Shown here: positions 12,001 to 24,000 of the stretch, piece after piece
How positions within the stretch are numbered: position 1 is the stretch's first letter
Layout of the letters: the number at the start of each line of letters is the position of its first letter
Assembly (NCBI GenBank): GCA_965203095.1
Contig: OZ241877.1
Location: 1,184,001-1,248,000, forward strand
Length of the DNA: 64,000 nt
Source: Bdellovibrionales bacterium
GTDB taxonomy: Bacteria > Bdellovibrionota > Bdellovibrionia > Bdellovibrionales > UBA1609
Direction: 5' to 3'
Program-made: the position numbers

Positions 12001-15000
12001 AGTAAAAGAGATTAAATGATTGACTCCCATCACTAAAAAGATTAAAAGCACTTGATTAAATGATTTTAGGAGAAAACTGATGAAAAAATCATTATGCATC
12101 CTAACAGTAATGGCCTTTTTTGCCCCCGCACTGGCAGAAGAAAGGCCAACCTCTCTAGAATCCAAATCTATAGAGGGAAAAGTTCAAACCACTACCCCTT
12201 CAAAAAGCAATCTCCATAGCGAAGAGCCTATAGATAAAATCAAAGTGACGGGTTCCCGCATCAACCGCATCGGGACAGAAGGGCCCAGCCCACTTTATAT
12301 TTATTCCCAAGAAGACTTGGAAAATTCTGGCTATAGCTCCGCCGGTGACTTTTTAAGAGACACAACCATATCTCATTTTGGAGTGGGAAGGGAGCAGTCG
12401 GGAAGGAGCACAGCTGGAGTATCCTCTGCTGGCATTAAAGGGGAACAAGCTTTGATCCTTATCAATGGCCTGAGAGTGGTTGAAGACCCTCATGCCAATG
12501 CTGTGGATCTTAATCTCATCCCCTTATTTGCTATAGAAAGAGTAGAGATTTTAAAAGACGGGGCCTCAGCCCTATATGGCTCAGATGCCGTGGGTGGGGT
12601 GATCAACTTTATCACCAAAAAAGATTTTTCTGGAATAGAGCTTCAGGCCCAGGCCAGCCCTACAGCATGGCCTTTGGTTAAGGGAGGTTCTCGCGGGGAT
12701 ATAGCTGTCATAGCAGGGGAGAGTAGCAGAGATTGGTCTTATATCAGCTCTTTTCACCTCCGTTTTCAAGACCAGGTCCACAATGCCGATCGGGCATGGA
12801 CTAAAAAATCTATTTCCCCTATAGGTCCCTACGGCATTTTCACAGTTGGGAGAGGAAAGCCCTATATCGATCCCTCCTGTCCTAATATAACCTCCGATGG
12901 ATGTGAGTTCAATGTAGCTGGTCACTCCAGCAAGCTCCCTCGGCAAAGCCAATTATACGGTTATTTGCAAGCTGATTACAAAATTTTTGGAGAGAATAAG
13001 CTCTATACCCAAGTTTTATCCAGCTGGAAAAACACCAACTGGTTTTATGCTCCTGTTCCTGGAGGCTTGCCAATCCCAGCACAGCATAAAATGAGCTATG
13101 CCACAGGCCAACCGGGAGTTTTAAGGTTTCGCTTTATGGAGGCGGGGAAAAGAGATACCACAACAAATAACTTTGCTGGAGATCTCACTGTGGGGCTAAG
13201 GGGCTGGCTTTCCCACTCTTGGGACTATGATATTAATTTGAAATTAGCCCATATCACAAAAAACAACAAGGAAAAGGGCCTTCTGTTAAAAAAAGAGCTT
13301 ACTCAGGCCATTTTAACAGGGGTTTATGATCCCTTTAATAAAAGCAGAAGAGACCTTTCAACAGCCCTTTACACAGCTAAGGACAATAATGATTCCATAT
13401 TGCTTTCCAGCTCTTTAGATTTTTCCGGGGATCTCGGGTTCTTATCCAAAACCTTAAATGATTTGAATTTAGCTACGGGCATTCAAGCCTATTTTAAAAA
13501 TTATGACCAAAATGCGGACAAAAAATCAAAAGCTGGTGAAATTTTATCTAACGCTGGAGGAGATGGCTATGGAGAGCGATTTGTTTTGTCCCACTATTTT
13601 GAGATGGGTCATCATTTTTCTGAAATTTTGGAACTGCAACTGGCGGGACGAACGGATTATTACTCCGATGATTTTGGCTCGACTTTCAACCCTAAAGGTG
13701 CCTTTCGATTTCAGCCTTGGCTAAAGCCTATGTTGAAAATCGCGAAAAAGCTGACTTTCAACCCCAAAGTGGCTGTTCGATTCCAACCTCATTCCCGCTT
13801 TTTTTTGAGAGGCAGTGTGGGCACAGCCTTTGTAGCCCCATCACTTGATGATCTCAACCAATCGGACTTTGAAACCTATCCTTGGATTTTTGACACAGTG
13901 GCCTGTTATAACGAATTAAAATCCCAAAAAAGTTTTGCCACAACCTATAAAGCCTTAGGGGAAATGTCAGTAGAAAAAAAGGAAGAATTCGTTAAGGACT
14001 TCCTGATCGAGCAAAAAGATGTGATGGGGAGAAGGAATCTTAAAAAAACTGTCCTATCGGAATTAAAAAAATTATCCCAAAGCTTCCCTCAAAAAGATTA
14101 CTGTAAAGACCGACAAGTTAAGGGCATGGGAAAAGGGAATAAAAAATTAAAAGAAACCAAAGCCATAGTCGCCTCCTTGGGATCAGTCTCACAAATCACT
14201 GATGAGCACAGCCTGACTTTAGATCTATGGTATATCAGAAAAAGCGGAGTCCCAGGTTATGGATTAGGTAAAAAAACTATAGATTCAGAACTTAATTTTG
14301 GAAATGATTATGTTGCCAAAAAGGGGGTGACAGTCAAAAGAAAAAGTTCTCAACATAATCCTATAGATAAAATCCAAACAAAACTTTTAAATCTTGGGAA
14401 AACCCATATTTCCGGTGTGGACATAGATTGGGAGTCGGACATGACAAACATTCGCATTCCAAGTGGGAATCCTTATTTTAAAAGTTCACTCTCTTACATT
14501 TTATTTTTTAGGAAAGAAGATTTCCCTGGGATTGGCTATGTGGATAAAATAGGCAAATTTGGTTCTCCTCGTTGGAGAAACATCAGCTCCTTCGGTTGGA
14601 AAAACAACAAACACAATATTTCTCTAACAGCCCACATTGTGTCCCCTTTTAACAAACGAAGTTCCGAGTTAGAAGATCTCCCTTTATCCATCCGATGGGA
14701 TTTAGATTATCAGTTCATAATGAGTGAAAAAACTTCCATCCGCCTGGGCTGGTCCAATCTGCTTTTTCAAGATCCTCCTTATGACAAAGAGGCGGAAAGC
14801 AACCAATTGGATCATGATATTTTTGAGTCTCGTGGCCCCTTCTTTTTTGCTGGTATCAAACACAAAATTTAGTTTTGGGAAAACTACCAACCAATAGAAA
14901 AATGGAATCGGTAATTTAAATCCGCTTTGGGCCTTTCGGGGGGAAGTCTATAAGCAATATCTAAACCCACAGGGATTAAAAAAGTCTGATAACGAAAACC

Positions 15001-21000: not shown

Positions 21001-24000
21001 AGAGGAATTACTTGAACTCCCTCTAAATGAACATTCATTGTAAATATGTTAAATTGTAAAAGCTCCCATTCAATTTTTAAGCCTGTTTGATTCTCAAAAG
21101 CTTGAACCCCCTCTGTAGCCCTATCATTTATAAAGCCTTCCACCTTGTTGCCAACTTGACGTAAACTGATCGGGGTAAAGAGAAAAAACAAAATAAAAAG
21201 AAAGAGAAAAACAAAAAACTTTTTTGTTTTGAAAAAACGAGGGATTTTAAAATTTTTAAAAATAGATCTCATCTTTTTTGTGGGTTATGTGTTTTTCAAC
21301 CATTTATCCAAAAGATATTGCACACTTTTATAATCCGGCTGAACCTGAGAAATAGCTGTAAGATACTCAATAGCTGAAGACTTTTTTCCTAAAGCGTAAA
21401 GCATTTGTGATTTAATGTAAATGAGAGGCAGAAAAAAACTTTCACTTTCTGGAGTTTCTGAAAAAAGCCGGTGGATCAACTCTAAACCTTTTGTGTATTG
21501 CCGAGTCTCCAATGCCCAGTCTAAGTAAAACCAATAATCAGACAACCGGCGAACATCTGTCTCTAACAAAGACAAAGCCTGATCCGGCCAACCACCGAAA
21601 TATAAAAAAAAGGATAGATTTTTTGTCCGGTGAGGGGTCTTTTTAGCCGTTTGCCAAATTGCTGAATGCCAGCTTTTTTTTAAATTCCGCTTTTCCAAAG
21701 GAAAAGAAGGTAAGGAGTCGACTTCCTCAGTCTTTTTCCTCTGACTGATCTTTTTTTGCTCTTGAATAGTTAAAATAGCCTTTTTTTCATCCCATTTTTT
21801 TTTGAGTGTTTTATATTTTTTATTTAAAGGTTGAAGAGACAATAGCTTAAGGATAATGTCTTCCTCTTCTTTTATCAAATTTTGAGCTTTAGCAAACTCT
21901 AATCTCTCCAAAAGATCTTCTTCCTCTTTAGAGGACTTTTTCCCCTCCATATCTTGAAGATGGACATATCTCAACTGCTGAAACTCTGGGGAAATGTCCT
22001 CCCATTCCTTACAAGCAAATAGGGCCGGTGTCCAATTTTCTTTCTTTTTGAGGTAGTGGTGAAACAAAAGTTTCTTCATTTGTGAATTAGGGGATATTTT
22101 ATATTTAGTTAAAATTTTTAAAATGTAAGGCCATGCAAGAGGCTTTTTTTTACTTAGCCTTTGAGCTGAAAATTCCAGCAAGGTTTTATATAAACCGGCA
22201 TTGTAAAGAAACCGACTGACATCCTCTATACTTGAACTGCCTTGAATTTCTTCAAAAATTTGGATTGGTGTTAAATTTTTTTTAAAAAGAGAAAAAATCT
22301 TTTTTTCCAAAAATTCTACTGTTTTAATTTGAGAATCCATATTTTTACCAATTTTAAAAAGGTGGGCACAAATACAAAACGAATAGTATTATCTGCATCT
22401 TTCAATATAAGTTCCGTCTTTACAGTTGATTTTTAACTTATCCCCCTCTTGAATATGCAAAGGGACCTGAACCACAAGCCCTGTCTCCATAGTGGCGGGC
22501 TTAGTTGTATGGCTGGCAGTATTCCCCTTAAACCCAGGATCGGTTTGTGACACAGTTAAAATGAGGCTCCTTGGCAACTCAATAGAAATTACCCGATTGT
22601 TAAAAAAACAAGCCGTGACTTTTAAAGATTCTGTCAAATAGTATTGATTGTCCCCAACAATTTTCTGGCTTATAGCCAAAGTCTCATAAGATTGAATATC
22701 CATAAAATAAAAAGAGTCCTTATCTTTATATACATAAGAAAGATTTTTGTAATCAATATCCGGCACCGCAAACTTTTCCCCAGAGCGGATTGTAAGATCA
22801 ATAGCCATGCCTGTCAGGAGGTTAGTTAGTTTGGTCCTGGTGAATTGATTGCCCTTCCCTGGTTTGATATGCTGAAAATCCAAAATAACATGAGGTTCTC
22901 CTTTTACCATGAGCTTTAATCCTTTTTTAAAATCACTTGTCCCATACATGGCTATCTGATGGTTTTGTGCCGGATGATTTTTCTCATTTAAGAAAAAGGA
23001 GCAAGGGCCTTTTTCAAGCTGAACCAGTATAACCACTTTTTGAAAATTTATCCATATAAATTTCAATATGGGCTAAAATTTTATTCAGCCGGGCCAGTTT
23101 TTGACTCTCTTTTTCAGAAAGAGTTTTAGGCTGTGCCTCTTTTTCCTCCGTTTGACGAATCTCCTTTATTGGCCGATCCACTACCTTTTCTAAATGCTGA
23201 ACTGTGGCTGTGGCCTCTTTGTCCCCTGGCCTTAAAAGAACAGCCATTTTATAAGCGTTAAGGGTTTTTTCTAAATCATTTTTCTTTTTATAGATAGCAC
23301 CTAAACTTTTGTAAATGTTAGGGTTATCCGGGTTAAATTTTTTGGCTTGAGTGAGGCAATAGATGGCCTCTTGGGTCCGGCCCTGGCTTTCGTATATATC
23401 CCCAAGCAAAGCATAAGCCTGAGAATGAGAGGGATGATAAACTAAGCCCTCAAGACATAGCTTTTCTGCCTTCTCCACAGCCCCACTGGAATAATAAATT
23501 TGAGCTAAAGAGCAAAAAACTTTTGAGCGAGGGTCTTTTTTAAGATTATCCTCCAGCTTTTTAGTTAAAAGGGGATTATGTCCGGCCATACTTCTATTTT
23601 GACATAAAAAGTCTGGATCCGCCAAACTTTTTTATGGTTTTTTCCATTGAAAATTTTTATTGCTTGCGTTGAAACTCAATTTGAATATACCTTTGGGCTG
23701 GTTTTATTTGAAAATTCATGTTAGCTAAGTCATACTGCTTTTGTTAGCAATATATTAAAATATAGAGAGAAAGCTCTTAAAAATTTCTGGTTTTTGAGAG
23801 CTGAGGGAGCTAAGGCATTCGTTTAAAACTTCAACAGGATGGCTCAACAACTATGGATCTGATCATCATGGGCATTGATCCCGGCACTGTGAGCACAGGT
23901 TATGCTGTGATTCACACTACAGAGGATTCCAGCAAGTGTTTGGATTACGGCCTCATCCGTGCCAATGAAAAATCTTTCCCTCTCAGAATAAGCAAAATTC

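Follow-up and report, generated by a model that had tools for sequence, protein, structure and literature searches.

The region analyzed was a 64-kb window of contig C1 from G000, the 1.8-Mb genome of an uncultured member of the Bdellovibrionales. Bare coordinates are positions in this window. The following genes and features were identified.

12080..14872, plus strand: TonB-dependent receptor, 930 aa (Pfam Plug and TonB-dependent receptor barrel)
14884..17187, minus strand: second Omp85 protein (TamA-like), 767 aa, separated from the upstream tamB by 2 bp (Omp85 E value, 3.5e-33; POTRA present)
17190..21272, minus strand: TamB, 1360 aa, AsmA-like periplasm-spanning lipid bridge (Pfam TamB E value, 2.6e-40)
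21285..23625, minus strand: block upstream of tamB comprising a 351-aa unknown protein, EF-P, and a TPR protein (order kept in LPS-making G034, G040, G010, and G027)
23853..24940, plus strand: ruvC-ruvA, end of the ancestral block (synteny with relatives)
29828..32647, no strand assigned: a 579-aa protein and ComEC, likewise left from that ancestral block (synteny; the block in relatives also has lptF)
39026..41689, plus strand: fibre protein with a C-terminal S74 chaperone domain (Pfam; six ORFs of G000 carry S74)
48316..50867, plus strand: murG and a Mur ligase, peptidoglycan synthesis retained (Pfam)
51044..52012, plus strand: outer-membrane beta-barrel protein, 322 aa (Pfam OMP_b-brl E value, 3.9e-5)

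The survey's finding had placed the TonB-dependent receptor, Omp85, and TamB genes side by side and counted two Omp85 proteins; Pfam and the gene coordinates bear out the adjacency, and exactly two Omp85 genes were counted in G000. The tamB-Omp85 gene order is common to G000, G037, and G068, the TamB domain had a single match in the whole G000 genome, and the full-length TamB adjoins a POTRA-bearing Omp85, as in a TAM. The receptor gene lies tail-to-tail with the Omp85 gene and is probably outside its operon; in the relative G037, the place of the receptor next to the Omp85 gene is taken by a 146-aa ORF. The ancestral block in relatives extends past ruvC-ruvA to ruvB, lpxC, and ald. Based on its domain, the S74 fibre protein is a candidate partner-recognition adhesin, and the S74-type fibre proteins of G000 are presumably linked to Bdellovibrio adhesive fibres.

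Comparisons were made across 121 genomes including G000, with genera labelled g1, g3, g7, and g18 and families f1, f7, and f10. G000 (completeness, 90.44%) belongs to f1, and Bdellovibrio species belong to f10 of the same order. In a conserved-marker comparison, the named records nearest to its RpoB were titled Bdellovibrionales (up to 82%). Together, its genus g1 and a second genus, g3, formed the set lacking lipid synthesis (n = 14; 1.2 to 2.5 Mb; 8 genomes in one or two contigs), and RpoB, the positive control, was found in all 14.

In six-frame searches of G000, LpxC had no match at an E value of ≤10, and no LptF/G, LptD, LpxB, WaaA, ABC_membrane, or LptD_N/LptA was found. The sole match to CTP_transf_3, the KdsB family (E value, 4.6e-5), was a GlmU-sized frame of 454 aa and was discarded. 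Order-specific profiles generated from Bdellovibrionales orthologues of LpxC, LpxA, LpxB, LpxK, LpxL, LptF, LptG, LptD, LptCA, WaaA, KdsB, KdsD, and a heptosyltransferase identified no orthologue in G000 (best E values, 0.02 to 0.8), the LpxA profile matching only GlmU-type hexapeptide proteins; the Skp control profile gave an E value of 1.5e-31 in the same search. LpxD and LptE were not found using E. coli queries only. A KdsA-like match at C1:1364755 (28% identity) has a motif by which we take it to be a DAHP synthase. Thus, in searches covering LpxA, LpxB, LpxC, LpxD, LpxK, LpxL, KdsA, KdsB, KdsD, and WaaA, G000 was without a lipid A/Kdo pathway.

The loci that carry these genes in LPS-making relatives are closed in G000. 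At C1:1471950-1474075, ruvB and ald are separated by 11 bp without lpxC; skp is followed by ribF in place of fabZ-lpxA-gnnA-lpxB-lpxK-lpxL; and def and a response regulator gene lie ∼200 bp apart without lptG. Similarly, rpmF-acpP-rpiB lacks fabH-fabD-fabG and fabF, uppS has no cdsA beside it, and asd is without pssA-psd. Public short-read contigs, a second assembly, cover rpmF-acpP-rpiB in one piece with zero differences. That the neighbors of the LPS genes abut in G000 indicates loss and not an assembly gap. The claim that the lipid A/Kdo and Lpt/MsbA genes are missing was therefore upheld by the six-frame searches, order-specific profiles, and deletion scars; with the positive controls of the family searches, these also support an outer membrane without self-made LPS, the membrane itself being deduced from genes alone.

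The loss in G000 extends beyond LPS to fatty-acid and glycerophospholipid synthesis, which the survey's finding had missed, and these losses of lipid genes are almost certainly real. FabF was absent from 14/14 g1 and g3 genomes versus present in 23/23 controls; FabF fragments at E values of ∼1e-6 were thiolase-level, that of G000 falling within its FadI homologue. Likewise, none of the 14 had a PF01553 (PlsC-family) acyltransferase (21/21 controls), a CdsA over the cut-off (20/21 controls), a CDP-alcohol transferase (PgsA/PssA; 20/21 controls), or FadL. The absence of Psd was assessed in G000 alone. PlsX and PlsY were dropped as evidence because lipid-making G034 and G052 lack them too, making these searches uninformative. 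PLD-domain matches in G000 were proteins of 1092 to 1097 aa, read as nuclease-helicase restriction enzymes and not as cardiolipin synthase. With E. coli queries, PlsB, DgkA, Aas, LplT, ClsB, PagP, and YbhN were not found in G000.

Searches for sphingolipid, ornithine-lipid, and isoprenoid-ether substitutes were also negative: OlsB-type enzymes were found in 0/4 g1 and g3 genomes (present in G034), and GGGP synthase and MBOAT in 0/5 genomes each. The sole alpha-oxoamine synthase homologue in G000 (C1:94426) is best read as BioF, as BioA, BioB, and BioD are present. G000 has retained LipA/LipB, GpsA, biotin genes, and an ACP that carries the serine motif, with no acyl supply evident for them; FadD, a PldB-like hydrolase, and mevalonate/UppS isoprenoid genes are also kept. 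AcpS was not found. With both fatty-acid and glycerophospholipid synthesis gone, the cell is unlikely to make a replacement glycolipid itself, which raises the question of where any of its membrane lipid comes from.

LPS synthesis was missing in 23/121 genomes and was lost at least twice among those sampled. Lipid A/Kdo synthesis and Lpt export were absent throughout the clade of g1, g3, and g18; G017, one of the 23, keeps Lpt and is missing Lpx. G052, G065, G015, and four f7 genomes have no LPS and possess their own phospholipid genes. Genomes of the order could be arranged in a graded series that starts from complete LPS, passes through Lpt lacking Lpx (G017), LPS-free genomes (g18, g7, and some of f7), and a partial loss of phospholipid genes (G026), and ends with no lipid synthesis (g1 and g3). 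G069 (61% complete) was left out of the LPS-less count, as were G087, G113, and G118, which are fragmented and have LpxB and LptF/G without LpxC. LPS loss had previously been tied to small genomes, which is contradicted by G030 and G054 (1.2 to 1.3 Mb), which keep LpxC, LpxB, and LptF/G, and by G106 and G112 (2.6 to 2.9 Mb, single contigs), which have none of these; genome size was thus rejected as the cause. In the RpoB tree, g3 grouped with g18 (SH-aLRT, 90), and a g1-g3 clade was not rejected (p-AU, 0.096), so that the RpoB sequences would fit either one phospholipid loss or separate losses.

The outer-membrane machinery that the survey's finding had listed was largely recovered. G000 has BamA, Skp, LolC, Pal, TolQ/R/B, BamD-like and BamB-like proteins (the latter with an E value of 1.8e-12), and a LolD recognized from its similarity to that of G034; for LolA the only candidate was weak (E value, 0.12), and three secretins were found, not four. 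BamA, Lol, secretins, and Tol-Pal together provide for outer-membrane biogenesis, and Lgt, Lnt, MurA, MreB, RodA, and PBP2 are encoded elsewhere in the genome. An MlaE-MlaF-MlaD operon at C1:1068829-1071095 is headed by a PsbP/DcrB-like lipoprotein gene, also seen in G052. MlaA and MlaC were not found with E. coli queries, leaving the system incomplete by E. coli standards, and the gene after mlaD in G034 had no match. The g1 and g3 genomes keep BamA; MlaD was present in 14/14 of them and TamB in 13/14 (open frames, 1228 to 1418 aa). MlaD and TamB are kept in nearly all relatives (35/35 and 33/35, respectively), so their retention is no special sign of import.

G000 also keeps type IV pili including PilQ, Tad pili, a gliding cluster, six fibre genes, complex I and cytochrome oxidase homologues, purine synthesis, and many restriction-modification genes, along with 13 ankyrin genes and an inverse autotransporter. 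Ffh was absent, as was TipA, a lipid-binding candidate of Bdellovibrio (best profile E value, 0.82). Searches for PopA gave four candidate proteins (one in G000 and three in G108) with no PDB match at the thresholds used, and no PopA was identified. The absence of flagellum and chemotaxis genes and the presence of only one DacB weaken the case for a classical invasive-predator lifestyle.

From this gene content, it appears probable that G000 is a diderm lipid auxotroph that acquires lipids in intact form from prey or host cells and passes them inward via MlaEFD and possibly TamB. Dependence on foreign lipid is very likely, and both membranes would probably be built from lipids of prey or host cells; the odds that Mla plus TamB form the inward route are roughly even. 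G000 would be a reduced member of the Bdellovibrionales that lost its envelope lipid pathways stepwise, leaving two membranes, both presumably of foreign lipid. With no known acyltransferase, whole diacyl lipids and not just fatty acids would be needed, and these would be taken from a partner in direct contact, which could be bacterial prey (the case in Bdellovibrio) or an animal host. Lipid reaching the outer membrane would pass inward by ATP-driven MlaEFD and probably also by diffusion along TamB, a candidate route in which net flow would run from outer to inner, the reverse of the usual direction, since the inner membrane makes no lipid. In simulations, lipids enter the TamB groove from the outer membrane, with direction described as unresolved (PMC13507460). 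Imported phospholipids could serve Lgt and Lnt as donors. Partner phospholipid and lipoproteins would make up the outer leaflet, to which prey LPS would have access solely from outside, as Lpt is absent. It is a tentative proposal that g1 and g3 are walled, respiring, surface-motile diderms whose membranes are both wholly prey lipid, with TamB reversed as a bulk importer alongside MlaEFD and with BAM folding proteins into a bilayer of foreign lipids.

An intracellular symbiont of an animal or protist, similar to Ehrlichia, would share this auxotrophy and differ in lipid source and route: lipid delivery would rely on the traffic and fusion of host vesicles, TamB and Mla would have no more than their ordinary housekeeping roles, and LPS would have been lost to evade immune recognition. 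The ankyrin genes, inverse autotransporter, and missing flagellum and chemotaxis genes suit such a lifestyle, reduced Bdellovibrionota are reported as sponge symbionts (PMC9944714), and Ehrlichia, without LPS, is reported to take up host phospholipids (PMC7149431). However, the pili, Tad, gliding cluster, six fibre genes, restriction-modification genes, and purine synthesis are retained, and Lgt requires phosphatidylglycerol. This lipid is typical of bacterial and not of animal plasma membranes. Symbiosis of this kind is possible and, on balance, rather doubtful.

It is improbable that own lipids are made by non-homologous enzymes or belong to a novel class, for example through scavenged fatty acids re-acylated via FadD and an unrecognized acyltransferase. 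FadD, ACP with its serine motif, GpsA, the PldB-like hydrolase, and mevalonate/UppS are kept; the Pfam scan took in ∼117 of ∼1574 ORFs, and among these, many large exported ORFs had no family, so an unrecognized lipid enzyme is conceivable. However, such a route would require substitutes for four unrelated enzyme families, whose genes have been cleanly excised; GGGP synthase, OlsB-type, MBOAT, and LpxL-type enzymes are absent; and the sole alpha-oxoamine synthase is best read as BioF. Genes that were unassembled or diverged past detection could be suspected given the 90.44% completeness, the Pfam LptD match over the cut-off in only 11/17 LpxB-positive genomes, and the three fragmented genomes with LpxB and LptF/G without LpxC. 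Against this, 14/14 genomes (8 assembled in one or two contigs) show identical absences, the genes on either side lie next to each other at six separate loci, the acpP junctions are identical in a second assembly, and the order-specific profiles detect controls and no target, making an artefact extremely unlikely.

LPS-free diderms such as Borrelia burgdorferi and Sphingomonas are known (PMC13721041), and Ehrlichia is described as lacking LPS and still encoding PE, PS, and PG synthesis (PMC7149431). Orientia is described as another, and an LptD homologue as present in Borrelia. Like G000, these have outer-membrane machinery without lipid A. Borrelia makes phospholipids from imported fatty acids. 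Whereas Sphingomonas makes glycosphingolipids and Borrelia and Ehrlichia their own phospholipids, G000 has no Lpt or any phospholipid pathway; the Sphingomonas-type route (serine palmitoyltransferase, acyl supply, and Lpt) and the Borrelia/Ehrlichia-type set (CdsA, PgsA/PssA, and acyltransferases) are both missing.

Parcubacteria/CPR are reported to have no fatty-acid or phospholipid synthesis, to keep peptidoglycan and type IV pili, and to be missing SRP, the PilQ secretin, and most energy and nucleotide metabolism (PMC4508563). G000 shares the total lipid auxotrophy, peptidoglycan, type IV pili, and missing SRP (no Ffh), and differs in its PilQ, BAM, three secretins, Tol-Pal, complex I, cytochrome oxidase, purine synthesis, and Bdellovibrionales phylogeny. 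Having BAM, secretins, and Tol-Pal, unlike CPR, it would have two membranes to supply, and it works like a CPR-type auxotroph without being a CPR member. Obligate insect endosymbionts have much smaller intracellular genomes, many without peptidoglycan. Some are reported to lack membrane lipid synthesis, as in G000, and to be host supplied (PMC4508563), whereas g1 and g3 genomes are larger and genes for a wall, pili, gliding, and adhesins are found in G000.

For B. bacteriovorus, of the same order, uptake of lipid A and fatty acids from prey is reported, by a route called elusive (10.1101/2025.09.09.675085). It is also described as making neutral lipid A and having Bam, Lpt, and Mla (PMC12228718). 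G000 resembles B. bacteriovorus in its pili, Tad, gliding, DacB-like, and fibre genes and differs in its family and in lacking flagellum and TipA; in G108, from the family of B. bacteriovorus, all lipid genes searched for were present except FadL. The sponge Bdellovibrionota MAGs B11 and B12 (1.2 to 1.7 Mb) are likewise reduced and described as without flagellum or chemotaxis, and as having lost the type IV pili that G000 keeps; "lipopolysaccharide" and "phospholipid" do not occur in the main text (PMC9944714). No report of LPS or phospholipid loss in Bdellovibrionales was found in the open-access literature. LPS-less diderms and lipid-auxotrophic CPR were already known; no paper was found that describes diderm machinery combined with the absence of LPS, fatty-acid, and phospholipid synthesis.

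LPS, and certainly phospholipid synthesis, is treated as basic to two-membrane cells with BAM, Lol, and Tol-Pal. A lineage with transport machines and no internal lipid source would make the direction and energy needs of TamB and other AsmA-like bridges testable, as well as lipid uptake from prey by Bdellovibrio-like cells. Its graded relatives show a possible order in which a diderm envelope is dismantled, and the genes common to g1 and g3 only would offer a small set of candidates for the missing machinery of lipid uptake.

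The genome under study, G000 (Bdellovibrionales), totals 1,797,770 bases in two contigs, C1 (1,780,579) and C2 (17,191), with a completeness of 90.44%, 38 tRNAs, and one tmRNA. Bdellovibrionales was the title of the named records closest to its RpoB (best, 82%), and an RpoB tree of 105 sequences separated its family, f1, from the family of Bdellovibrio and Pseudobdellovibrio, f10. C2 is a 17-kb tandem repeat (unit, ∼1109 bp) without tRNAs or convincing genes and is probably foreign to the bacterium.

Six-frame family searches of G000 identified no LpxC, LpxB, LptF/G, LptD, WaaA, ABC_membrane, or LptA-type domain. 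Profiles for 13 LPS proteins, built on orthologues within Bdellovibrionales and in several cases on just two to four sequences, also gave no match, where Skp and MlaD control profiles did; LpxD and LptE were not found using E. coli queries alone. In the LPS-making relative G034, the gene order is lolC-lolD-bamA-skp-fabZ-lpxA-gnnA-lpxB-lpxK-lpxL (the gene between lpxA and lpxB being presumably gnnA), plus two heptosyltransferases, while in G000 ribF directly follows skp in place of the fabZ-lpx run. The genes that flank lptG in relatives, def and a response regulator, lie ∼200 bp apart, kdsB and kdsD are gone beside pyrG, and lptCA-lptB is gone beside rpoN. Family searches, order-specific profiles, and these scars together bear out the survey's finding that LPS synthesis and export genes are missing, LpxH/I being outside the set searched.

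LPS-making relatives carry one block running lptF ... comEC ... ald, lpxC, ruvB, ruvA, ruvC, a TPR protein, efp, an unknown protein, tamB, and Omp85; this order was clearest in G034 and G040, and the remaining relatives partly deviate. The window of G000 retains the part from tamB to ruvA, and the TonB-dependent receptor, Omp85 protein, and full-length TamB earlier placed there were all confirmed. Outside the window, ruvB and ald are paired with 11 bp between them (C1:1471950-1474075), lpxC having gone. The window also holds a partial duplication (39026-49401), in which an S74 fibre C terminus, a pentapeptide-repeat gene of identical length, and the 5′ part of murG are each present in two copies, with a DDE transposase (43679-45469) between them.

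Across the order, LpxC was present in 94 of 121 genomes. Four of the 27 without it were set aside, three being fragmented but carrying LpxB and LptF/G and one only 61% complete. The remaining 23 also lacked LpxB, and LptF/G and LptD above the cutoff were missing from 22. In RpoB trees (G001 of g1 lying outside them), an LPS-less clade with full support comprised the genera g1, to which G000 belongs (10 genomes), g3 (4), and g18 (3). Since this clade stands apart from an LPS-less group in family f7 (G089, G098, G106, and G112, adjoining LPS-positive G078) and from two further LPS-less genomes on long branches, G015 and G017, LPS was lost at least twice on these single-gene trees. The f7 group, which includes single-contig genomes of 2.6 to 2.9 Mb, keeps phospholipid synthesis, and its loss of Lpx and Lpt genes is a second, independent event. 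Genome size was rejected as the cause, as G030 and G054 retain LpxC, LpxB, and LptF/G at 1.2 to 1.3 Mb. Both belong to genus g22, on a very long branch, and keep LPS and phospholipid synthesis despite their size; g22 represents reduction by the opposite path. The two-contig, 3.1-Mb genome G017 (loci L244, L245, L246, and L283) retains LptC/A, B, D, F, and G without LpxC, LpxB, WaaA, KdsB, or an ABC_membrane domain, and the cargo of its Lpt may be lipoproteins or a lipid other than LPS.

Because FabZ had gone along with the lpx block, lipid synthesis was surveyed generally. Order-specific queries for FabH, FabD, FabZ, FabF, CdsA, PlsC, PgsA, PssA, and Psd gave no match in G000. Among the g1 and g3 genomes, FabF was absent from 14/14 (present in 23/23 controls), PlsC-family acyltransferases were found in 0/14 (21/21 controls), and CdsA and CDP-alcohol transferases in 0/14 (20/21 controls, the exception being G026). 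MlaD was found in all 14 of these genomes and TamB in 13, and genome incompleteness therefore does not explain the zeros. The acpP locus reads fabH-fabD-fabG-acpP-fabF-rpiB in relatives G052 and G034 versus rpmF-acpP-rpiB in G000, where cdsA is also gone beside uppS, pssA-psd beside asd, and pgsA beside glpX. Three public short-read runs, all of one sample, gave contigs that spanned rpmF-acpP-rpiB with zero differences, a check that bears on the assembly rather than the biology because the sample may be the assembly's own source. The carboxylase genes flanking an enoyl-CoA hydratase gene (C1:1303628-1308016) are probably catabolic and not AccABCD. The substitutes sought in G000 were likewise not found (OlsB-type N-acyltransferase, which G034, unlike G000, has; GGGP synthase, MBOAT, FadL, PlsB, DgkA, Aas, LplT, ClsB, PagP, PldA, and YbhN). 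Of the isoprenoid genes, UppS and mevalonate enzymes, the latter read from sequence, are kept. G000 also retains ACP with an intact DSLD motif (C1:428719-428967), LipA (C1:289970-290884), and LipB (C1:83872-84567); an E. coli AcpS query gave no match. The single-contig g18 genome G026 (L367) keeps FabF and PlsC, lacks CdsA and CDP-alcohol transferase, has no fabH-fabD by fabG, and is an intermediate stage of the loss.

The envelope set of G000 comprises BamA (five POTRA domains), BamB-like and BamD-like proteins, Skp, LolC/D, TolQ/R/B, and Pal, together with Lgt, two Lnt, and an LspA motif. Four secretins had been counted earlier, but three were found (PilQ, GspD, and one Tad-type). Wall genes (MurA, MurG, MreB, RodA, and PBP2), complex I, cytochrome oxidase, beta-oxidation with FadD, and purine and biotin synthesis are kept. 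A cluster homologous to TPR/MotA/ExbD genes of relatives is, we presume, a gliding motor. Six S74-domain fibre ORFs and 13 ankyrin genes were identified, as were two adjoining, CRISPR-effector-sized ORFs of ∼1400 aa each (C1:753871-762421). An exported-protein family (C1:845789, 939921, 1264574, and 1775582; three members of >1000 aa) shares a similar stretch near the N terminus and had no Pfam match where scanned. No flagellum, chemotaxis, Ffh, or TipA genes were found; Ffh (FtsY would be expected to match too) and YsxC gave zero matches although membrane proteins are many, and losses such as these two, searched in G000, may lie behind the 88 to 94% completeness of single-contig relatives. 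An operon joins mlaE-mlaF-mlaD to a PsbP/DcrB-like lipoprotein gene at its head (C1:1068323-1068832; L361:8324-8833), conserved in G052, whose product is a possible stand-in for MlaC.

Any growing cell requires bilayer lipid. Having no acyltransferase of known family, G000 would be unable to build a bilayer from free fatty acids, FadD presumably serving beta-oxidation, and would therefore have to acquire whole lipids. These would probably come from a partner. The relatives of G000 are contact predators; for B. bacteriovorus, use of lipid A and fatty acids from prey is reported, with the route described as unknown (10.1101/2025.09.09.675085). Lipid in the outer membrane would then move inward by two conserved ways, MlaEFD and TamB. 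The E. coli counterpart of MlaEFD is described as retrograde, and TamB as a diffusion groove that outer-membrane lipids entered in simulation (PMC13507460); with the inner membrane as sink, net flow along TamB would be directed inward. We infer both the uptake and these inward-transport steps. Against this route, MlaA and MlaC were not found in G000, nearly all relatives retain MlaD and TamB anyway, ACP, LipA/B, and GpsA persist without explanation, and no protein was identified for the passage of lipid from the partner's membrane into the outer membrane. The main rival is a host-fed intracellular life, and lipid auxotrophy is common to both readings.

LPS-free diderms (PMC13721041; PMC7149431) and bacteria that make neither fatty acids nor phospholipids (PMC4508563) are already described. 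Bdellovibrio is reported to keep Bam, Lpt, and Mla (PMC12228718), unlike G000 in respect of the Lpt genes searched, and the main text of a report on reduced Bdellovibrionota from a glass sponge is silent on LPS and phospholipids (PMC9944714). No report of LPS or phospholipid loss in Bdellovibrionales was found in an open-access library, subscription papers being outside its scope. LPS loss by itself would make G000 a new example of the LPS-free diderms; the surprise to specialists is that all recognised membrane-lipid synthesis has also been lost, in a lineage of 1.2 to 2.5 Mb with a wall, respiration, and pili.
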